41,463 nucleotides of DNA, from positions 1 through 41,463 of the forward strand of contig JAYTNQ010000335.1 of the NCBI GenBank assembly GCA_043748255.1. The letters run 5' to 3'. Each line of letters starts with the position of its first letter. The stretch's first letter is position 1. Shown here piece after piece: positions 7,773 through 28,104 of the stretch. Both the position numbers and the translations under genes were made by a program. This stretch comes from Bacteroidota bacterium. Lineage in GTDB: Bacteria; Bacteroidota; Bacteroidia; Flavobacteriales; Flavobacteriaceae. The notes below the pieces were generated by a model. That model searched no databases. It was not told where the DNA came from and saw only the letters and a program-made list of their open reading frames with translations.

Positions 7773-8165
7773 TTATAAAACCACCATATTATCTGCCAAA
7801 GTTTCGATGAATTTTGAAATAGGCCCTTTGATCATCATGGCCATCATCGCATTAAATTCGCCTTCAAAAAAAAGCTGAACTTGCGTTTCCTCTTCCGTGA
7901 TAAACTCAATTGTAGCAATCAATACAAACGGAAGTTTGTCGCTTGCCGCGCCTAAAATTATTTTAGAATTTGGATTTTTTTCTTTAATTTTTAATTTTAT
8001 TTCTGGCATCCCTTTTAATCCAAAAATAAAAGAATCCTCTGAAGTTACTTCAAATTTTGAAGTGTTTTCTGGCATTAATTTTTCAAAATTCTGAACAACA
8101 CAAAGGGATTCAAAAACGTATTTTGCAGATTTTTTGAGGATTATTTTTTGACTTTCTAAATTCAT
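7773..8165 (-). CDS. SRPBCC/START-like family protein
   Basis: NFEKLMPE and FEGEFNAMMAMMIKGPI, recalled as a conserved flavobacterial SRPBCC protein. Confidence 0.7.
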   Translation of the reverse strand: MNLESQKIILKKSAKYVFESLCVVQNFEKLMPENTSKFEVTSEDSFIFGLKGMPEIKLKIKEKNPNSKIILGAASDKLPFVLIATIEFITEEETQVQLFFEGEFNAMMAMMIKGPISKFIETLADNMVVL

Positions 8166-11559: not shown

Positions 11560-12165
11560 CTATTTCCAAAAATAAAAAAGTATCAACTGTGGCATAATGC
11601 CAACCAAAAAACCAAGTGTTAGTTCTTTGCTATTGTGGGCTTTCATTTCTAATCGAGAACTTGCAACAAGACCAATACAACTCGACAAACATATTATTGT
11701 CAGCAACATTCGAATCTCAAAATACAAACTTAATTCTATAACAAAAACAACAAGAGCACTAATACCAATGAGGTGCAAACTTGCTTTATGTCCCATAAAA
11801 ATTAGAAACAAAGCCAAAAATGTGCTAAATATACTACCTATAAAAAAATAATATAATTCTGGATAATTTTCCAAATTTTGGCTCCTTTTTAATAAAATTA
11901 GCAGCAAAATAATATGAATTATAAGAGGCAAAATACGTTGACTTTTGTTGGCAATCATGATATTATCTACTTTGCCCAAACTCTTTAAAAGAAAAAAAAA
12001 TGAAATTGGAATCAAAATCGTTAAGATAACAACTTGGAATAAAAGTAAATAAAAATCATTCATTCCAAAACGACCAACATTATGAGTCCAATAGAGCAAT
12101 AATGCCATCGTTGGCACAAACAAAGGATGAAATATATATGAAAAAGAGATTAATATTTTTTTCAA
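11560..12165 (-). CDS. Conserved multi-pass membrane protein (PAP2-like C-terminal motifs)
   Basis: About 7 hydrophobic segments; SYIFHP, KASLH, SSRLEMKAH motifs. TTG start with TATTTTTG at 12193-12200. Confidence 0.75.
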   Translation of the reverse strand: MKKILISFSYIFHPLFVPTMALLLYWTHNVGRFGMNDFYLLLFQVVILTILIPISFFFLLKSLGKVDNIMIANKSQRILPLIIHIILLLILLKRSQNLENYPELYYFFIGSIFSTFLALFLIFMGHKASLHLIGISALVVFVIELSLYFEIRMLLTIICLSSCIGLVASSRLEMKAHNSKELTLGFLVGIMPQLILFYFWK

Positions 12166-12604: not shown

Positions 12605-13483
12605 TTATAGTATTTTACCTGTATTAGTTAATTTAGCAGAAACATCACTCCAATTTCTAGTTAAATGAATTCTAACTTGTGAAACCAAATCTAATAAAAC
12701 ATCAGAATATATTGGTTGAATTGGTTGATTTTTTGCTCTTTTAGATTTTCTCAATACATAAATTTGGTCTATTTTAGAATAAATTGGGTCTACTTTTAAA
12801 TCAACATCATAATTTTCTGTTACTATGAAAAATAAAGAATATGGATTTCCAGACTTAACTTTTTCTGCTGTAGCAATTGAACCCTCTAACATTGTTTTAT
12901 CAATATATGTTTTGTTCTCAATTGCAACAATAGGTAAGTTAGTATTTATAGAATTTGAATCACCAATTGTAATGCTGATAGGTCTATAAATTGCAAAATC
13001 TTGGTCTTTATCATTTATTCCTATTTGTGGAGAATTCACAAATTCTTGAAAATTTGATCCTGAAAAAAATAAATTTGTATATGCTCTAGAGCTTCCAACT
13101 CTTAAATTATTATTTGAATCTTCAAGATTTACTTTCACTTCGTTTATTAAATCTTTGAAAAGAATATACATAAATTCTTCTAAAATTGTGGGTCTAAATT
13201 TACCTTGAGATGTAAAAACATTATCGTATTGATTTACATTAATGAAGTTGTAATAGTTGTTAAGTAATATTGTTCTATCTATGATGTTTTGTTCAGAATA
13301 ACCAATAATATGATTGTTTGCACTTATAAAATTAAAGTATTCATTCGCAATTATTGGAAGTGCATTTTTTTGAGCTTGACTTAAAGTTGCCCAATTTCCA
13401 AATTTTGCAATAATATTTGAAGCGTGTTTGTAAACACTTAAATCTAAAGTATTTAAAAATGCAATTAATTCTTGATTATTCAT
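12605..13483 (-). CDS. Type II restriction endonuclease, Bpu10I/DdeI family
   Basis: TILEEF, DQDFAI and AIENKTYIDKTM (PD-(D/E)xK core typical of the Bpu10I family). Overlaps the MTase stop by 8 nt. Very A+T-rich. Confidence 0.85.
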   Translation of the reverse strand: MNNQELIAFLNTLDLSVYKHASNIIAKFGNWATLSQAQKNALPIIANEYFNFISANNHIIGYSEQNIIDRTILLNNYYNFINVNQYDNVFTSQGKFRPTILEEFMYILFKDLINEVKVNLEDSNNNLRVGSSRAYTNLFFSGSNFQEFVNSPQIGINDKDQDFAIYRPISITIGDSNSINTNLPIVAIENKTYIDKTMLEGSIATAEKVKSGNPYSLFFIVTENYDVDLKVDPIYSKIDQIYVLRKSKRAKNQPIQPIYSDVLLDLVSQVRIHLTRNWSDVSAKLTNTGKIL

Positions 13484-14672
13484 TATATATTATTTCAGGT
13501 TCATTAAAAATTAAAAATTGATTTTCTTCCATTGGTTCGTCATAATTACCATTTTCAAGCACTCTTTTAAGAGTTGTAGCTATTTCAAATGCCATCAATG
13601 GCGGTACTGCATTTCCGATTTGTTGATATTGACTTAAACCTTTTTCCCAACTCATTTTAGTTCTCATTCCTTCAAAAATGAAATCATCTGGAAAAGATTG
13701 TAATCTTGCACCTTCTCTTGCAGTAAAATTTCTATCTAAAAATGGATGTATAAAATTACTTTGAAAAGATGCTGCAATTGTTGGAGCTGGCTTATTTGCA
13801 ATCAATCTCAAGTTGTTTTGACTAAATTTTACATTTGATTTTTCATTTGGATTTCCTCTTTGTACTGCTCCGTGAGTTTCCCATACATCTAGTAGGTTTT
13901 TACCTGGTTGAATTGCTCTAAATCTGTCAATCAACCTTTGAGTGTGACGCATTGCAATATGATTAAAAACTTTTTTAGAATTTTTACGCATAAATTGTTG
14001 ATAATCATTCATTGGCTTACTTGCATAATTCAATTTTTCTTCACCTTCTCCTGCATTTATTTTTGGTAAATCACTGATTGCTTCTTCCACTGTTATTTCC
14101 TTTTCATATTTTTTTGATGGAAATTCAGGAACTAATTCTAAATCTTTTCTTATTCCTATAATAATTACTCTTTCTCTTGATTGAGGAACACCGTAATCAG
14201 AAGCTTTTAGAACTTTTGTTCTTACTTCATATCCAAATTTACCCGAATTTTCAAACTCATTTTGGATTTGTTTAATTACTTGCCCTGTTTCCATAGATAA
14301 TAATCCTTTAACATTTTCCATTACAAATGATTTAGGATTGTACCAGTTTATAGTTTTAACAAATTCATAAAAAAGTTTATTTCGCGGGTCTTCTGATACT
14401 TTATTTCTTTTTTTATTAGCTAAACTAAATCCTTGACAAGGCGGACCGCCAATAATCACATCAATTTCTTTTTCTGAAATAATTTTATCAAATTCATCTT
14501 TTGTGAATTCTGATAAATCTCCACAAAGAAATGGAATTTCAGGAAAGTTTGTTGCAAAAGTTTTTTCACAATTTTCATCAATATCAGAGGCAAGTACTGA
14601 ATTAAAACCTGCCCATCCAAAGCCAAGTGTCATTCCACCACAACCTGAAAATAAATCAATTGAATTTTGCAT
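13476..14672 (-). CDS. DNA (cytosine-5)-methyltransferase, M.DdeI-like
   Basis: DLFSGCGG (I), GGPPCQGFS (IV), ENV (VI), QSRERV (VIII), REGARLQSFPD (IX), QIGNAVPP (X). The variable region resembles M.DdeI as I recall it. Confidence 0.93.
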   Translation of the reverse strand: MQNSIDLFSGCGGMTLGFGWAGFNSVLASDIDENCEKTFATNFPEIPFLCGDLSEFTKDEFDKIISEKEIDVIIGGPPCQGFSLANKKRNKVSEDPRNKLFYEFVKTINWYNPKSFVMENVKGLLSMETGQVIKQIQNEFENSGKFGYEVRTKVLKASDYGVPQSRERVIIIGIRKDLELVPEFPSKKYEKEITVEEAISDLPKINAGEGEEKLNYASKPMNDYQQFMRKNSKKVFNHIAMRHTQRLIDRFRAIQPGKNLLDVWETHGAVQRGNPNEKSNVKFSQNNLRLIANKPAPTIAASFQSNFIHPFLDRNFTAREGARLQSFPDDFIFEGMRTKMSWEKGLSQYQQIGNAVPPLMAFEIATTLKRVLENGNYDEPMEENQFLIFNEPEIIYNE

Positions 14673-18969: not shown

Positions 18970-20193
18970 TTATGTCAATTTGTTTTCTAAATTTTCTTTG
19001 ATTGCTTCCAGAAAATTTTCTGTAGTAAGATAATCGGCTTCGGTCAAGCCAATTGGTTTGACCAACATGGCCAAATCTTTGGTCATTTTTCCGCTTTCGA
19101 CGGTATCAATGCAAACTTGCTCAAGTGTGTTACAAAAATTAATCAACTCTTGATTATTATCCAATTTTCCGCGGTGCTCCAAACCTCGAGTCCAAGCAAA
19201 TATTGATGCAATTGGGTTTGTTGAAGTTGCTTTTCCTTGTTGGTGCATGCGATAGTGACGCGTAACGGTACCGTGTGCCGCCTCGGCCTCAACGGTTTTT
19301 CCGTCGGGAGTGACCAATACAGAGGTCATCAAACCCAATGAACCAAATCCTTGTGCTACGGTATCAGATTGCACATCGCCATCATAATTTTTGCAAGCCC
19401 AAACAAATCCGCCGCTCCATTTCATGGCAGAAGCAACCATATCATCAATCAATCTGTGTTCATAAACCATACCATTTTTGTCAAATTCGGCTTTATATGT
19501 AGATTGAAAAACTTCTTCAAAAATATCTTTAAAACGACCGTCATAAGCCTTCAAAATGGTATTTTTGGTTGACAAATATAAAGGCCATTTTTTGGTAAGA
19601 GCCATTTGAAAAGACGAATGAGCAAAACCATAAATACTTTCATCAGTGTTATACATCGCCATGGCAACTCCATCACCATCAAAATCAAATACTTCCCAAG
19701 TTTGTGTTTCGCCGGCATCAGGAACAAATGTCATAGTGAGTTTTCCTTTTCCTTTTATGACAGTATCTGTTGCTTTATATTGATCGCCAAAAGCGTGACG
19801 CCCAATCACAATTGGTTTTGTCCAACCCTGAACATATCTGGGCACATTACTCATGATGATAGGTTCGCGAAAAACGGTACCGCCAACAATATTTCGAATA
19901 GTACCGTTTGGGGATTTCCACATTTTCGAAAGATTAAATTCTTTTACACGCTCTTCATCTGGAGTGATAGTTGCACATTTGATGCCAACATTGTATTTTT
20001 TTATAGCCTCTGCCGAGTCTATCGTAATTTGATCTTTGGTTGCTTCGCGGCTTTCGATACCCAAATCATAATACTTGATATCCAAATCAAGATAAGGCAA
20101 AATAAGTTTTTCTTTAATAAAAGTCCAAATTATTCTTGTCATTTCATCGCCATCAAGCTCTACCACTGGATTGGCTACTTTAATTTTTGTCAT
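18970..20193 (-). CDS. icd: NADP-dependent isocitrate dehydrogenase (type II)
   Basis: [53 protein letters not shown] at 20231-20238. Confidence 0.97.
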
Positions 20194-20315
20194 GCTATTC
20201 TAAAGTTTGTTTAAATTTAAAAATGGTTAGCAAATATAATCATTTTCAATTGGATAAAAAAATCCGTTTTTTAAAAAAAAAGTTTTTCAATGAAATGTAT
20301 TATCATAACCAATTA

Positions 20316-20358
20316 CGGGGGTTTTTCCCCGCCAAAAAAAGGGTTTTTTTCCCCTTTT
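20316..20358 (+). promoter_or_regulatory. Tandem GGG-N8-CCC boxes, candidate response-regulator sites
   Basis: CGGGGGTTTTTCCCCG and AAAAGGGTTTTTTTCCCCTTTT, 24 bp apart in very AT-rich DNA, ~50 nt upstream of ATG 20411. Confidence 0.55.
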
Positions 20359-20410
20359 ATGGCTTTTTAGGTTGCTATATTTTTACCAATTAATTTAAAC
20401 ATTTAGAGAT

Positions 20411-20800
20411 ATGAAACCCACAAATTTAATTACAACAGCATTCGCCAAAGCACTGAGTCAAAATTATATCATAAGTCGAGAAAACAGCCCAAACTTCAAC
20501 CAAGACGCTACATCGGTTTGGTTTTCGATAGAAGAAATGGAATTATATTTGGCTTATTTGAAGACTGAATCTCAAGAAAAAAATTATGAGATAAACGGAA
20601 TCCGATTTTATTTTGGGGTTTATCCAACTGATTTTATAGACCCAGAAAAAGCAGGAATGACAACCTTATTTGTTTGTCCGACTACAAACAAAGCTACCGA
20701 ACCGCAATCGTTTGATTTTGAAGATGTTGTTGAAATTTCAGCTATGAACTATGGCTCGTTTACAAAACCTCCAAAAGGTTGTTACCCAAAGAAAAAATAG
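20411..20800 (+). CDS. Small soluble hypothetical protein heading a two-component locus
   Basis: 129 aa, no signal peptide or TM. Motifs SVWFSIEEM..Y, GIRFYFGVYP, TTLFVCPT and C-terminal MNYGSFTKPP. Confidence 0.8.
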   Translation: MKPTNLITTAFAKALSQNYIISRENSPNFNQDATSVWFSIEEMELYLAYLKTESQEKNYEINGIRFYFGVYPTDFIDPEKAGMTTLFVCPTTNKATEPQSFDFEDVVEISAMNYGSFTKPPKGCYPKKK

Positions 20801-20870
20801 TAGAAATTGAATAATCATAGTGCAATTTGATAAAATTTGTGCTATTTTTGATTTCATTAAAAAAAAATAG

Positions 20871-21518
20871 ATGTTTCATTATTTAAGTGATTTTATCATT
20901 GTTTTGAACTTTGCTTCAGGGCTTGTAGGGCTATTTAATTTTAAAAAATTACCAACATTCAAATCAAAATTACCTTTGTTTTTGATTTTGATATCTTTTT
21001 TGACAGAAGCAGTTGGGCTCATTCGTCCTGATTATGATTTTTTGAAAAACAATAATTTAATGGTGTTTTATACTGTTGTTAGTTTTAGTTGTTATTTCAT
21101 TTTATTTTCAAAATTGATAAAAAATAAACTAAAATCAAATTTATCTTTGATTTCATTACTATTTTTCTGGTTTTATTTTGTTTTTGATTTTTATTTTTAC
21201 AAACATGATGACGCTACATTTTCCAATTATTTTGCATTTGGAGTAGTGCTTACTGTTGTACTATCTTGTATGTATTTTTTTGAAATCTTAAATTCCGACA
21301 AAGTCGAAAATTTTAAAAAATCTTGTTTTTTTTGGTATATTTTAGGCATAATGGTTTTTCATATTCCAATGCTTCCTTTTATGGCGAGTTTCCAATTTTT
21401 TCTCAATTTTAACAGTAGCTTTTTAGTTTTTGATTTTATTCTATTTTTATTAAATTTATTAATGCACCTTTGTTTTATAATCGGATTTATATGGAGCGAG
21501 AAGAAATACAATTATTAA
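20871..21518 (+). CDS. Stand-alone ~7-TM membrane protein, putative sensor subunit
   Basis: Seven hydrophobic segments by eye; overlaps the kinase start by 28 nt. Confidence 0.8.
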   Translation: MFHYLSDFIIVLNFASGLVGLFNFKKLPTFKSKLPLFLILISFLTEAVGLIRPDYDFLKNNNLMVFYTVVSFSCYFILFSKLIKNKLKSNLSLISLLFFWFYFVFDFYFYKHDDATFSNYFAFGVVLTVVLSCMYFFEILNSDKVENFKKSCFFWYILGIMVFHIPMLPFMASFQFFLNFNSSFLVFDFILFLLNLLMHLCFIIGFIWSEKKYNY

Positions 21519-22276
21519 TTATCTCATCAAGTGTTGTTTTTATAATTTTGATGGTTACCTTGTTTGCCTTTTTTTTCTACTTTCAGAAAAAAAAGACATC
21601 ATTTATTTTGGAAAAAATGCAGTCAAAATTACATTTTAAAAACGAACTTATCAATACACGAATCGAAATAAAAGACCAAACATTGTCTGAAATTAGCAAA
21701 GAATTGCACGACAATATTGGTCAAATTCTTACAGTTGCGCTTCTGAAAATTCATGTTTTGGAACAAAAAAAAACACCAATTTTGTCTGAAGAATTAAAAG
21801 ATATTCAAGAATGTGTTTCAAGTTCTGTGAACGAAATTAGAATTTTATCGCGCATTATTAATAAAGAAAATCTTGCAGAAACAAATTTTATAGAGGCACT
21901 AAAAAATGATATTTCGAGGGTTACAAAACTCAAAAAATTCAAATGTGTATTTGAGGTTGAAGGCGAAAAACCCGAAATTAATTTTGAACATGAATTGTTT
22001 ATTTATCGGATTTTTCAAGAAGGAATACACAATATTTTGAGGCACTCGCAGAGCACTATTTTTGATTTGAAAATTATAATTTCAGTCCAAAATATTGTTA
22101 TAAAATTGATCGATTATGGCGTCGGATTTGATCAATCTGTAAACAAAAATGGCGCCGGAATTAGAAACATGAAACTTCGTGCCAAACTAATAGGTGCCAA
22201 ACTTAACGTAACCTCAAACAAATTTGGCAGTTGCTTATTGCTCGATTATCCAATACCTACAAACCATGAAAACTGA
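21491..22276 (+). CDS. Histidine kinase, HisKA_3 (NarX/DesK class), single TM, no sensor domain
   Basis: H box EISKELHDNIGQ, N box YRIFQEGIHNILRHS, DYGVGFD, GAGIRNM. Start moved to ATG 21491. Confidence 0.92.
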   Translation: MEREEIQLLIISSSVVFIILMVTLFAFFFYFQKKKTSFILEKMQSKLHFKNELINTRIEIKDQTLSEISKELHDNIGQILTVALLKIHVLEQKKTPILSEELKDIQECVSSSVNEIRILSRIINKENLAETNFIEALKNDISRVTKLKKFKCVFEVEGEKPEINFEHELFIYRIFQEGIHNILRHSQSTIFDLKIIISVQNIVIKLIDYGVGFDQSVNKNGAGIRNMKLRAKLIGAKLNVTSNKFGSCLLLDYPIPTNHEN

Positions 22277-22916
22277 TTCCATTTATAAAATAATTCTTGT
22301 TGACGATCACACACTGTTTACACAATCACTCAAATTTTTGCTGAATAGCTTTGAAAATTTTGAAGTTGTTAACACCTTTGAGAATGGCAAGTTATTTGTT
22401 GATTTTTTAGACTCAAACCCAACATTTGAAGCAGATTTAGTGCTTTTGGATGTAAATATGCCTATTTTGGATGGAATTCAAACCATGAAATGGGTTGGGA
22501 AAAACAGACCATCACAAAAAGTTTTAGCACTTTCGCTAAACGATGATGAAGATACAATTATTAAAATGCTCAAAAATGGTGCTCGTGGCTATTTGTTAAA
22601 AGACACTTCGCCAAATATGTTTGAAGAAGCGATGACAATTGTGATTGAAAGTGGTATTTATTATACCGAATTGGTTTCGGGAATTTTGGTAAATAGATAT
22701 GATAAAATCAAAAACAAAATTCAGCTTCGTGACAAAGAAATTGAATTTGTAAAATTATGTTGTACAGAAAAAACATACAAAGAAATTGCAGAAGTCATGC
22801 ACATTAGCCCAAAAACCGTAGAAGGATACCGCGAAGAAATTTTTAGCAAATTGGAACTAAAATCACGAATTGGTTTGGTATTATATGCCATAAAAAATAA
22901 AATATATTCTGTTTAA
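22266..22916 (+). CDS. NarL/LuxR family response regulator
   Basis: LVDDH, LLDVNMP (phospho-Asp), GYLLK, HTH KTYKEIAEVMHISPKTVEGYR. Start moved to ATG 22266. Confidence 0.94.
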   Translation: MKTDSIYKIILVDDHTLFTQSLKFLLNSFENFEVVNTFENGKLFVDFLDSNPTFEADLVLLDVNMPILDGIQTMKWVGKNRPSQKVLALSLNDDEDTIIKMLKNGARGYLLKDTSPNMFEEAMTIVIESGIYYTELVSGILVNRYDKIKNKIQLRDKEIEFVKLCCTEKTYKEIAEVMHISPKTVEGYREEIFSKLELKSRIGLVLYAIKNKIYSV

Positions 22917-22983: not shown

Positions 22984-22987
22984 CCCC

Positions 22988-23288
22988 GCAGACCGCCTTA
23001 TCGCTCCAAAATTTGGGGAGGAAAGTCCGGACACCAAAGAGAAGCATAGCGGGTAACGCCCGTCGTTGTGAGCAATCACAAAAGGACAAGTGCAACAGAA
23101 AGTATGTACAGGTTAAGCTGTAGTGAAACCAGGTAAACTCTATGCGGTGAAATTTCAAGTATATCAATAGTTAAGGGCTTCTCGTCCGTTGTTGAAGGGT
23201 AGAAAGATAGATCGCAATAGCAATATTGTGGCCAGATAAATGATAAGGCACCGATTTTTTGGTGACAGAATCCGGCTTATAGGTCTGC
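22988..23288 (+). ncRNA. rnpB: RNase P RNA (type A)
   Basis: GAGGAAAGTCCGG, AGTGCAACAGAAA, GGTAAACTC, AGATAAATGAT, ACAGAATCCGGCTTA; P1 helix GCAGACC/GGTCTGC. Confidence 0.97.
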
Positions 23289-23317
23289 ATTTTTTTAAAC
23301 GAATTTTAAAAATACTG

Positions 23318-25391: not shown

Positions 25392-26942
25392 TTATTTTTC
25401 TATAAAAACCATACATTTTAATCCAATCGAGTCTAAATTTTTTCTGGCATGAATATTATATCCTTCAAATTGATAGGCTTTGAAATTTAAACTACAGGGT
25501 TTTGAAATCAAAAGCTGATAATTATTGGGTTGTCGAAATGGTTTATAAAATTGTAAATCGTCAAATGGATAAAGGTTACAAACATTTACAAAAAGTAATT
25601 TTTTGTTTGTTTTTGAAGCTATTTTAATTTTCATAGTTGCCAAATTTGGCACCTCAGACCAGCTTTTGGAATATTCAAAATAGTTGCTAAAACTACTAAA
25701 ATGATATTCATTATAGATTTGCCATGCGATATCTTTTGGATAATAAACCTGCTGATAAGGCAAGAAAACCAAACTAAATTGAATTGAAACTGCTAATAAA
25801 AAAATAGACAAATAAACTTGTTTTACCCATTTTTTCATTTTCAATAAAATCACAATTTTTTGCAAAATGACTATCAATATTAAAACCAAAAAAGGCATAA
25901 ATTGCCTGAGCAATCTTGCATAGTAAACCACTTTGTGGCCCCAATATCCTAAAGCGGCATACAAAAAATACAAAGCCAAAAGAACCAAAAACAGGATATA
26001 AATTGGTGAAACTGTTTTTGTTTTTTTAAAATCAAAAACACCAAATACTATAAATGCTATTAAGCCAAAAAGCAATAAAAACCCTGTAAAATTCTCAACT
26101 TCAGTAAGATATTTTATAAAAAACGAAAAGCACTCATCAAAACTACCCTGCGTAATTGTGGTTGAAAGAGCCATGGAATTTTGAATAAAAGATTGATCAA
26201 CTGCGCGAGAGGCCATTTCAAAAAACAGCAAACATGACACGCTTCCGATGCAATAAAAAAACATATTTGTTGTTTTTGTTGACATTTCTGCAAAACGCAA
26301 ATCGGTCAAAAAATACACTATAGGAATAGCAAAAAACAACAATATATATCCTGGATAACACAAATATCCGAAAAAAGCAATGAATCCGAAGAGTAAATAT
26401 TTGAAATTTGACCCTTTTTTTATTTTTAAATAAACCATCATTTTGTAAAAAACAAAATACAAAAGCAGTAAACTTGCATCATAGGGATCGGCATGGCGCA
26501 AGGATATATACGATATTAATAAACTTGAAAAAACAAAAACGGAGAGCAAGCTAAAAGTTTTGTTTTTTAAAAACAAATTTGAAAACAGAAAATGAATAAT
26601 TAGTAAACCAATGTATATCAAATAGTTGTATATAAAAAGCGGCCAGGCATTATCACTTTCATATATTTCGCATCCAAAAATGCGAGCTGTTGCTACTTGT
26701 CCAGACATAGGAATAATTTTTAACAAAGCATCTCCTGGACGACCTTGAGTAGCAAAAACATGAGTTATGGCATTTACGATATCGCCTTGAGCTAAACTTT
26801 TGAGCAATAATCCCGTTTCACGATACCTATTTTCATCTGGAAATGCCAAAAAACCACGACCTACTAATGAAATTTTCATGACTGAAAATAGAATAATCAA
26901 AAAGAAAATCTGTTTGTTTTTAGAAAATAAATTAGTTTTCAT
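25392..26942 (-). CDS. Polytopic membrane protein, probable GT-C-fold glycosyltransferase
   Basis: More than 10 hydrophobic segments; FPDE..Y acidic motif after the first TM; lies in a GT cluster. Start moved to ATG 26942. Confidence 0.6.
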   Translation of the reverse strand: MKTNLFSKNKQIFFLIILFSVMKISLVGRGFLAFPDENRYRETGLLLKSLAQGDIVNAITHVFATQGRPGDALLKIIPMSGQVATARIFGCEIYESDNAWPLFIYNYLIYIGLLIIHFLFSNLFLKNKTFSLLSVFVFSSLLISYISLRHADPYDASLLLLYFVFYKMMVYLKIKKGSNFKYLLFGFIAFFGYLCYPGYILLFFAIPIVYFLTDLRFAEMSTKTTNMFFYCIGSVSCLLFFEMASRAVDQSFIQNSMALSTTITQGSFDECFSFFIKYLTEVENFTGFLLLFGLIAFIVFGVFDFKKTKTVSPIYILFLVLLALYFLYAALGYWGHKVVYYARLLRQFMPFLVLILIVILQKIVILLKMKKWVKQVYLSIFLLAVSIQFSLVFLPYQQVYYPKDIAWQIYNEYHFSSFSNYFEYSKSWSEVPNLATMKIKIASKTNKKLLFVNVCNLYPFDDLQFYKPFRQPNNYQLLISKPCSLNFKAYQFEGYNIHARKNLDSIGLKCMVFIEK

Positions 26943-26955
26943 CTTAAATATTTTT

Positions 26956-28104
26956 TCAAATTGATGTTGATTCCCAAACATTCAAATAGTGTTGTGCTTG
27001 TTTGATATAATGGTGCTCTTGTTCGATAAATTGTCTTGCATTATGTGAAATAATTTCAATTTGTTCTGGGTTTTCGATCAAATAAGATAATTCATTTACC
27101 AAGTATGAAACATTTGGAAGAGCGTTAATCGCTACTTTGGTGTCTAAATTATAGTGTATTTCAAACACATTTTCGGCACCCGTAAAAACTACTTTTCCTT
27201 TTGCCATCGCTTCAAGCGCATTATACCCTTGATCCCAGCTATACACCTGATCCAAAACAATATGCGATTGATCTATATGTTTTTGAAATTCGATATAAGA
27301 GAGGTTTTCTGTCAGCAAACAAAACACTTTTTCAGGATATTTTTGTTGAATAATTTGTATTGCTTCTTCAAAAAAACAACTGCCTTTTTTGATAAAACTA
27401 TGTTTATTTTTTCCATAAAAAATGACGATTTTGTTAGAAATTATTGGAAAAACATATTGAATTTTGTCAACATTTATGGGATTTGCAATAAAATGAACCT
27501 TGGCTTTATAGCTTTCCATCGGAATTTTATAATCCAAATCTGAAACAAATACAGCATTACAATTTGTTGCTGCAAATTGATATAATTTTCTGTATGCTGG
27601 CGCAATATATTTTAAGGAATAACCATACTTTTTCTGTAATTTCGAATTTTCAAACAAGGGCGTTAATACAGAATAGGAAACATCATTTTTAAGTAATTTG
27701 TCAATTATTGGCGTATCATCACCACAAATTAGAAGAAAAAAACTTTTGTTTTGGGTTATTATTTTTTTGTAAAAACGAATAGATATCCATGGAAATGTTT
27801 CGATTGCGTCTGAATTTATTAATTGTACGACATCATAATTTTTGAATTTTGGTAATAAAAAATAAAACCGAATGGCTCTTTCTGCTTTTTGAAGATCTAT
27901 TTTGAAAAATTTAATGAAAATACGATTCAAAAAAACAAATAATTTATTGGTCGAAACAATTTTAGAACCAATAAAAATATCTGTTGGAAACTGCTTAAAA
28001 TCATCACCAGAGCTTGCTATTGTTACATCGTGACCCAAAACCTTCAAACCCTCTTTCAACGAATTGTGCAATCTACTAAACTCGCCAAGCAATAATATCT
28101 TCAT
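26956..28104 (-). CDS. GT-B (GT4-like) glycosyltransferase
   Basis: MKILLLGE, KKG, GYNALEAMAKGKVVF. Confidence 0.85.
   Translation of the reverse strand: MKILLLGEFSRLHNSLKEGLKVLGHDVTIASSGDDFKQFPTDIFIGSKIVSTNKLFVFLNRIFIKFFKIDLQKAERAIRFYFLLPKFKNYDVVQLINSDAIETFPWISIRFYKKIITQNKSFFLLICGDDTPIIDKLLKNDVSYSVLTPLFENSKLQKKYGYSLKYIAPAYRKLYQFAATNCNAVFVSDLDYKIPMESYKAKVHFIANPINVDKIQYVFPIISNKIVIFYGKNKHSFIKKGSCFFEEAIQIIQQKYPEKVFCLLTENLSYIEFQKHIDQSHIVLDQVYSWDQGYNALEAMAKGKVVFTGAENVFEIHYNLDTKVAINALPNVSYLVNELSYLIENPEQIEIISHNARQFIEQEHHYIKQAQHYLNVWESTSI

Follow-up and report, generated by a model that had tools for sequence, protein, structure and literature searches.

A widespread Bacteroidota gene quartet joins a candidate polypeptide ligand to a stand-alone seven-transmembrane protein, a sensor-less histidine kinase and a NarL-type regulator

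In the agr (AgrBDCA) and ComQXPA systems, a signal gene, a membrane receptor, a kinase and a regulator are encoded in one autoregulated locus, and ligands and receptors fall into specificity groups. Sensory rhodopsins are stand-alone seven-transmembrane (7TM) proteins encoded beside the gene of a membrane-anchored transducer, and adhesion G protein-coupled receptors (GPCRs) carry a tethered agonist, the Stachel of their GAIN domain. Here we analysed a gene quartet of a Flavobacteriaceae bacterium (assembly GCA_043748255.1, contig JAYTNQ010000335.1, positions 1 to 41,463; this whole stretch is the window). Four open reading frames (ORFs) in the same orientation (20411-22916, +) encode a small protein of 129 amino acids (aa), a 7TM protein that stands alone, a HisKA_3 kinase without sensor domain and a regulator of NarL type. 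The quartet is a real and widespread ligand-receptor-kinase-regulator unit, with the small protein as the likely ligand and the 7TM protein as its likely receptor.

Like agr and ComQXPA, the quartet joins a candidate signal, receptor, kinase and regulator in one locus, and here too ligand and receptor covary into specificity groups, in this case through a charge code. However, the ligand gene encodes a folded domain of 110-260 aa and not a short precursor, the receptor is a separate 7TM protein and not the N-terminus of the kinase, and the host is Gram-negative, with many ligands being lipoproteins and others lacking an export signal. No AgrB- or ComQ-like processing or export gene is conserved in the 6-kb flanks of 80 loci, and with the processing genes missing we rejected membership of the agr/ComX class. 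The SaePQRS and RcsF-IgaA-RcsC/D/B systems also combine a lipoprotein, an accessory membrane protein, a kinase that has hardly any sensor or none, and a regulator, a plan that fits the lipoprotein-bearing homologues of the quartet; their sequences are unrelated, whereas the quartet has a residue-level partner code and, in this clade, a small protein without export signal. In sensory rhodopsin loci a stand-alone 7TM protein of similar topology likewise adjoins a transducer gene, but here the retinal Lys is absent, the partner is the kinase itself and the input is likely a polypeptide. Finally, the N-out 7TM bundle, with its predicted ligand site among TM3-TM6, recalls peptide and adhesion GPCRs, but shows no sequence homology to GPCRs, and its gene context points to output through a histidine kinase, not a G protein. 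Bacterial 7TM folds are noted in the available text of PMC13581589.

The first gene of the quartet (20411-20800, +) encodes the small protein, which consists of a folded alpha/beta domain, an acidic linker and a conserved tail. The 7TM gene (20871-21518, +; 215 aa) follows, and its end is overlapped over 28 nt by the start of the kinase gene (21491-22276, +; 261 aa from ATG), which is the commonest spacing among relatives. The kinase gene in turn overlaps the regulator gene (22266-22916, +; 216 aa) by 11 nt. By Pfam, the kinase contains HisKA_3 with the conserved His (His73) and an ATPase domain (HATPase_c, below cut-off), preceded by one N-terminal transmembrane (TM) helix and no input domain, while the regulator contains a receiver (Response_reg) and a GerE helix-turn-helix; the two are thus a HisKA_3/NarL two-component pair. 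A reading made from the sequence alone, before this analysis (the sequence-only reading), had described the four co-oriented genes, the single-TM kinase without input domain and the 28-nt overlap in the same way. Receptor and kinase were separate ORFs in every locus read. No longer form of the 7TM protein was found, in a weak search that also let a known fusion escape. The same genome carries a second, distant 7TM-kinase-regulator copy (G000:C38, L003:3565-5625, -), where the contig ends inside the 7TM gene and so leaves the small gene out of view.

Linkage of the quartet genes was evaluated from both sides. An exhaustive search for the small protein gave 269 homologues among representatives at 50% identity (2 by word index), and 140/200 genomes in the family encode a member of the ligand family. 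A narrow 7TM profile matched 31 of 400 genomes of the phylum, and a broader one 78 of 150 genomes of the genus. In Flavobacterium, the named close relatives, all 80 kept loci (the best 80 of 215 found with the 7TM protein) displayed the full order small gene-7TM-kinase-regulator. All four are present in F. johnsoniae CI04 (L082), and for the ATCC 17061 strain orthologues of the kinase (ABQ05993.1) and regulator (ABQ05994.1) are recorded. Approached in reverse, from the small gene in other genera, the 7TM gene came directly after it in 90/90 loci (the 30 best plus 60 picked from 150 listed places). An upstream gene with a related tail preceded the 7TM gene in 20/20 distant loci (8 recognised by hidden Markov model, 12 by motif and alignment), and the small gene was present in 38/50 metagenome loci, the remaining 12 of which are truncated. 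Among held-out loci, linkage held for 68/70 small genes; the phylum-level locus L032, without a tail-bearing upstream gene, is an exception. Mirror-tree correlations (0.69 for small protein and 7TM, 0.80 for 7TM and kinase) fit mere co-inheritance. The quartet genes travel together, far beyond chance, and the co-occurrence of the small gene with 7TM, kinase and regulator genes that the sequence-only reading had proposed to score was found in both directions.

The layout also varies. In some loci a single kinase follows tandem small-7TM pairs or several 7TM genes, and in 29 a linked regulator is missing. Among expanded arrays, L392 (G842) has three extra lipoprotein ligand-like genes after one 7TM gene, L206 (G821) three small genes before one 7TM gene, and L396 (G971) three 7TM genes after one small gene. 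In L028, L030, L031, L188 and L199, small gene and 7TM gene are followed by other transducers, either a 519-aa protein, a short TM protein or, ahead of a 250-aa regulator, an unmatched gene; given these changing partners, the pair appears to be a portable input module. In one genome (G540; L036/L216), ligand and receptor are naturally fused: a 516-aa ORF consisting of a signal peptide, small-protein domain(s), a CPPxC tail and the 7TM domain precedes the kinase and regulator, and the fusion cluster has a second member on other contigs. Only in G540 does a folded domain with its tail stand directly before TM1, as in adhesion GPCRs; in the window the two are separate genes.

The AlphaFold model of the 7TM protein has seven long TM helices (pLDDT, a predicted score on the local distance difference test, 91). 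Its top structural matches were GPCRs, rhodopsins and LYCHOS, at Z 10-12 and a root mean square deviation (rmsd) of about 4.3 over some 200 aligned residues, with none standing out; ADGRF1 (Z 10.8, rmsd 4.3, 192 aligned) was tied with rhodopsins and other GPCRs. Since helical bundles generally reach Z 10-12, these matches reflect shared topology and not descent. Foldseek gave no row at E<=0.001 for this model, and Pfam and NCBIfam scans of the protein and of its alignment yielded scattered weak matches and no family. HisKA_7TM (PF16927) matched 0/129 homologues and 7TMR-DISM_7TM (PF07695) 2/129, weakly (best E 0.0014); the UniRef label 'Histidine kinase N-terminal 7TM region', borne by some homologues, has no support from Pfam. 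Mean numbers of Lys plus Arg were 3.3, 3.6, 2.4 and 2.1 in loops 1, 3 and 5 and the C-terminus, compared with 1.7, 0.7 and 1.0 in loops 2, 4 and 6. By this positive-inside distribution, and likewise by the G540 fusion, the N-terminus is predicted to lie outside, so that residues 68 (outer TM3) and 121 (TM5) would be in the outer half of the bundle.

The polar membrane residues to which the sequence-only reading had drawn attention are all present (E46, N60-62/Y67, H164, N195 and H199), and TM7 (183-208) indeed has no Lys in this copy, nor is one conserved in 129 homologues. A special role for the two His residues was not borne out, as W/Y dominate at position 164 and Y at 199. Conserved in the family are E/D46 (94%), N60, N/T65, P169, N195 and Y199. 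We accordingly rejected a type-1 microbial rhodopsin (retinal-binding TM7 Lys missing) as well as a His-based catalytic, CREST-like protein (His residues not conserved).

For the small protein, the AlphaFold model (pLDDT 88) shows an alpha/beta fold with two helices on a beta-sheet; the size of 129 aa stood as the sequence-only reading had given it, while the precursor it had imagined turned out to be a folded domain and not an unstructured chain. Fold searches of this model with Foldseek (none at E<=0.001) and VIA (best Z 3.3) gave no clear match, which does not show that the fold is new and counts neither for nor against a GAIN fold. No family emerged from Pfam and NCBIfam scans of the protein and its alignment (scattered weak matches only), an Atlas search returned unnamed Bacteroidota clusters only, and searches of PDB sequences with the small-protein and 7TM profiles found nothing significant. 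An automatic label, 'phage terminase small subunit', was rejected for want of Pfam support.

The tail (N113-K129, 20747-20797, +) has the pattern N-Y-G-x-x-x-x-P-P and, as a correction to the sequence-only reading, continues in this copy with ...KGCYPKKK, the Cys of which is not conserved in the family. Conservation is high at N113 (86%), G115 (82%) and P120 (84%). Across the superfamily the motif widens to [NDEQ]-x5-6-P, with variants NYGxxGxPP, NHGxLxPP, DFTxPCP and DLGNLRP-stop; position 113 is N or D in most homologues and E or Q in a few. Within Flavobacterium the tail (92% identity) is more conserved than the core (73%), which does not bear out the variable pherotypes of an agr/ComX-like short precursor. 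N113 covaries with core residues Y71 and F38, suggesting that the tail begins packed against the core, where D32, R34, R65, Y67, T85 and T91 are conserved polar residues. By our own heuristic, a signal peptide is missing in this copy, as the sequence-only reading had stated, and in 80/80 close orthologues; this did not extend to 149 diverse homologues, of which 101 have a lipoprotein-like (73) or hydrophobic (28) N-terminus and 48 neither. An overlooked leader peptide is excluded here by an in-frame stop just upstream of the start.

To quantify coupling between tail and receptor, we analysed 266 paired small-protein/7TM sequences. The top two inter-protein pairs by mutual information (MI) were 114-121 and 114-68, and receptor residues 68 and 121 were also coupled with each other. 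As MI is blind to the sign of charges, sign was examined separately afterwards: residues 114 and 68 had opposite charges in 37 pairs and like charges in 1, while 40 pairs had one charged residue and 188 neither. The charge correlation of 114/68 (r=-0.62) was the most negative among 2585 column pairs. The acid-base state was found in 17 separate clades and the base-acid state in 10. In independent tree contrasts, 18 of 40 were opposite, 2 same and 20 unchanged (reverse direction, n=24: 16, 2 and 6), and over all receptor columns position 68 ranked first and 121 second. Tandem pairs fit their own partners (114-68: D-K and K-D in L152, E-K and Q-D in L194, M-I and R-D in L132). The rule was replicated in 48 held-out new pairs, with 21 opposite, 0 alike, 13 with one charge and 14 with none. 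When the charges of 68 and 121 were summed, opposite outnumbered like signs by 52 to 1 in the discovery set and 25 to 1 in the held-out set. The charge rule also held in small proteins without signal peptide (6 to 0). Aromatic residues at 114 were accompanied by an aromatic residue at 121 in 127/142 cases. These covariation data indicate that tail residue 114, the likely specificity residue, very probably contacts TM3 residue 68 and TM5 residue 121. Tree co-change also ties 114 to 164, 105 and 109, which more weakly outlines a putative pocket among TM3-TM6. In the window, the pocket residues E46, T68 and F121 are encoded at 21006, 21072 and 21231 (+). This copy carries Y114/T68/F121, none of them charged, and inherits the contact from its charged relatives. 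Together with the linkage and the one fusion, the replicated code lends support to the earlier proposals that the 7TM protein is a detached sensor and that the tail is its ligand. Two further approaches were uninformative: mean-field direct-coupling analysis between the proteins was noisy (effective number of sequences 177), with implausible top pairs, and complex prediction of 7TM and small protein from paired alignments scored 0.00, an absence of an answer that counts neither way.

The promoter region carries a palindrome, AARGGG-N7-CCCYTT, at 20338-20356 (no strand assigned; position weight matrix score 21.9), preceded by some 21-23 nt by a weaker copy of GGG-N-CCC type (20315-20332). Position 20316, where the feature outlined in the sequence-only reading began, falls inside this repeat, which that reading did not describe. 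The palindrome is the only match in the window (0.03 expected) and stands before the small gene in 80/80 Flavobacterium loci. Elsewhere it occurs in 31/44 loci with a regulator gene versus 0/29 without (the 44 include six close orthologues and this window; 37 loci were left unclassed). A predicted sigma-A -7 box (20378-20385, +), with one mismatch to the Bacteroidota consensus TAnnTTTG (available text of PMC9723704), lies 23 nt past the last C of the operator. The same box lies 23 nt downstream in 80/80 relatives, 79 of them with a perfect box; the gap is also 23 nt at muramidase and patatin targets, and 24 nt at 9/12 promoters of extracellular contractile injection systems (eCIS). From this co-occurrence and spacing, the palindrome is with high probability the site of the NarL regulator, and it sits in what looks like an activator position, from which the regulator probably activates. 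In RNA runs (4 of 17 analysed), contigs covered just small shares of a relative's locus and show neither starts nor levels.

The two best sites of this genome are that of the operon itself and one on contig C289, 44 nt before a gene for a peptidoglycan-binding N-acetylmuramidase, with the same tandem layout as the two copies of the operon. Shuffled sequence gave 0-1 sites at a score >=22 and 0-2 at >=20. A weaker double operator-like site (scores 17.3 and 14.9; G000:C459:821-863, L212), with a divergent GH3 gene on one side and a 97-aa ORF on the other, may be a third target. The orthologous muramidase of relatives sits divergently next to the module in 22/80 loci and within 6 kb of it in 40; a degenerate second site before the divergent muramidase cluster matched the pattern in just 27/80 loci. 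Two alternative unannotated clusters, most genes of which have no Pfam match, replace or precede the muramidase as divergent neighbour (L045:3288-5300, L077:1029-3191; L041:4421-5296): a pair of 671 and 721 aa in 18/80 loci, and a six-gene cluster with S8 peptidase and peptidoglycan-binding genes in about 20/80.

Among 150 genomes of the genus, the exact operator pattern was present in 27/36 with the close-clade receptor versus 7/114 others. We read 53 sites: 22 stand before the small gene, 7 before a Pvc16 gene, 4 before a patatin gene and 3 before a pair of a TonB-dependent receptor and a 93-aa protein; 4 lie inside ORFs, and the others are singletons or without clear target. The Pvc16 operon of G338 is a full eCIS, with sheath, tube, spike, baseplate, tape measure, ATPase and eCIS_core genes. 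A site of score >=15 before the Pvc16 gene was found in 12/15 genomes with the close-clade module versus 0/11 without, three of which have the same Pvc16 clade (30 of 31 matches were read; Fisher values overstate the difference since the genomes are kin). In the available text of PMC8213781, eCIS particles leave by lysis, and GerE regulators adjoin 25.8% of eCIS loci, where with a kinase they are proposed to control eCIS in response to signals that are unknown. The quartet shares the GerE-type regulator and kinase, but would act from a distant locus, in trans, by way of a mapped predicted operator, and brings its own candidate signal and receptor.

Further sites stand beside other genes. In L232, L247, L251 and L285 the operator lies between divergent genes for a 93-aa membrane peptide, with a W/C/P-rich N-terminus, and a TonB-dependent receptor-like protein, possibly a bacteriocin or RiPP-like unit (RiPP, ribosomally synthesised and post-translationally modified peptide). 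An exact operator with 23-nt spacing to the -7 box precedes a Cas9-like gene (L265, G857) and a C-5 DNA methylase gene (L267, G974), and in L253 (G874) a caspase-domain gene is divergent from the module; these single cases hint at defence genes being part of the regulon of some strains.

We propose that the C-terminal tail of the small protein docks in an outward-facing pocket of the 7TM protein. In view of the linkage, the gene overlap and the absence of a sensor in the kinase, the 7TM protein would most likely signal through the single TM helix of the kinase, and tail binding would probably activate rather than inhibit. The regulator would then turn on its own operon, the peptidoglycan muramidase and, in relatives, eCIS operons. 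Lacking a signal, the small protein may exit by lysis, aided by the co-regulated muramidase, giving positive feedback: lysis would free the ligand, and neighbours would then make more ligand, lysin and weapons. We give this weakest step an even chance. It is favoured because the ligand of this clade carries no export signal, its predicted site faces outward, and the operator is shared with the muramidase and, in relatives, with particles released by lysis. Of the two release routes considered in the sequence-only reading, lysis thus gains support from the predicted muramidase and eCIS regulon, and no processing or export gene is conserved. Homologues anchored as lipoproteins or by a TM helix may gain access to that pocket without lysis, either from the envelope or upon contact. 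A similar logic, by which lysed kin would signal through a two-component pathway to antibacterial weaponry, is found in the PARA system of Pseudomonas aeruginosa, which senses danger from kin lysis through Gac/Rsm (available text of PMC4348357); as far as that text goes, the quartet differs in encoding a candidate ligand and a dedicated receptor in one operon and in its predicted eCIS/muramidase output, and the proteins are unrelated. The whole lysis-alarm model, as deduced from genome comparisons, is one we hold with modest confidence as somewhat the better bet.

Several observations weigh against it. The 114/68 pair was picked post hoc from kin sequences that are not independent, and the held-out set was drawn from genera that are related (14 newly added genomes belong to one genus), without tree correction. 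Only clades that carry charged residues reveal the code, and this copy has none. Enrichment of tail-by-outer-pocket pairs in the top 100 (16) equalled the fine-clade shuffle null (16) and exceeded only the coarse nulls (11-12), and tree-distance tests on tandem pairs failed to separate cognate from swapped partners. The sign of signalling cannot come from covariation, and since the -7 box is perfect in 79/80 relatives the promoter may be strong alone, in which case the site could repress. Three of the 15 module-bearing genomes have no operator before Pvc16, nor do second Pvc16 copies in four genomes, and in this genome (78% complete) tblastn found no eCIS structural genes, so that its visible regulon consists of the operon, the muramidase and one weaker site. 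Output presumably varies among clades, as the 29 loci without linked regulator also have no operator. Finally, with about two thirds of diverse homologues exported or anchored, lysis could not be a universal trigger.

The main rival to activation by the tail is the reverse sign. SaeP, CpxP and LiaF are accessory inhibitors or feedback dampers, and the tail might likewise be an inhibitory plug or damper in the same pocket, whose removal by envelope damage or proteolysis switches the kinase on. This fits identical contact data and a small gene standing first in a predicted autoregulated operon, and the many lipoprotein- or TM-anchored homologues and the receptor fusion would suit action in cis. 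We nevertheless regard it as unlikely, as the 80/80 Flavobacterium copies and 48/149 diverse homologues without export signal could not reach the outward pocket of an intact cell, and the charge code has switched repeatedly, including within one genus and within a single locus, a pattern that suits private signals better than it would a housekeeping plug.

Less likely still is density-dependent peptide quorum sensing without lysis, in which an unlinked protease and transporter would cut and export the tail as in agr/ComX. A cognate specificity code, predicted autoregulation, short tails that can stop right at the conserved Pro (DLGNLRP-stop) and a regulon of weapons, as is typical under quorum control, all agree with this reading, but it has to contend with the lack of a conserved processing or export gene near the quartet (80 loci, 6-kb flanks), with a tail start packed on a conserved folded core, and with a tail nearly invariant across Flavobacterium. 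That the small protein serves as a co-inherited accessory, or as an enzyme making a small-molecule signal, without receptor contact and with covariation as a phylogenetic or alignment artefact, could draw on the conserved polar core residues (potentially catalytic), the tail enrichment at its fine-clade null and a one-residue insertion beside receptor position 68 in a marine clade, but is made very improbable by charge reversal both ways in 17 and 10 clades, contrasts of 18 versus 2, replication at 21 versus 0 and recurrence of the rule at a second, adjacent pocket residue.

Within the preferred reading, that of an activating tail, release of the tail is favoured by the position of residue 114 next to the core-packed N113. 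A bolder version, doubtful as a whole, would make the system a bacterial equivalent of DAMP signalling: the protein would undergo self-cleavage behind Asn113, and the tail so released, which here starts with Tyr-Gly, would dock by its first residue in the TM3/TM5 pocket, close to the invariant acid of TM2; lysis would spread a self-amplifying eCIS/lysin wave among kin sharing the charge code, and the G540 fusion would be an adhesion-GPCR-like tethered-agonist receptor. Members with E or Q at 113 argue against Asn self-cleavage.

The operon is flanked on its 5' side by a divergent gene (18970-20193), which by eye we take to be isocitrate dehydrogenase, and on its 3' side, directly after the regulator gene, by the class A RNase P RNA (22985-23295, +; Rfam RF00010, 182.8 bits). 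Elsewhere in the window, a C-5 cytosine methylase and a Bpu10I-type restriction endonuclease (12605-14672, -; GC content 27-30%) form a likely acquired restriction-modification island. Three ORFs have no Pfam match at 1e-5: 25392-26981 (-), a 529-aa membrane protein inside a glycosyltransferase-like cluster, 11560-12165 (-; 201 aa) and 7773-8165 (-; 130 aa).

A search of full-text literature found no account of the module, most subscription papers and supplements, which may list these genes, lying outside it; the module is apparently undescribed. Ligand, receptor and architecture fall in no family tested, though the logic resembles peptide quorum sensing. If the proposed reading is true, Gram-negative bacteria would have a polypeptide ligand whose matching receptor is stand-alone and GPCR-shaped, the specificity code consisting of two residues, and the system would be a tractable model, in bacteria, of how peptide reading arose in 7TM bundles. 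The quartet supplies a candidate molecular pair for kin-lysis danger sensing, and for the control of eCIS it puts forward candidates for the signal, the receptor and the operator, where the signals are called unknown in the available text of PMC8213781.

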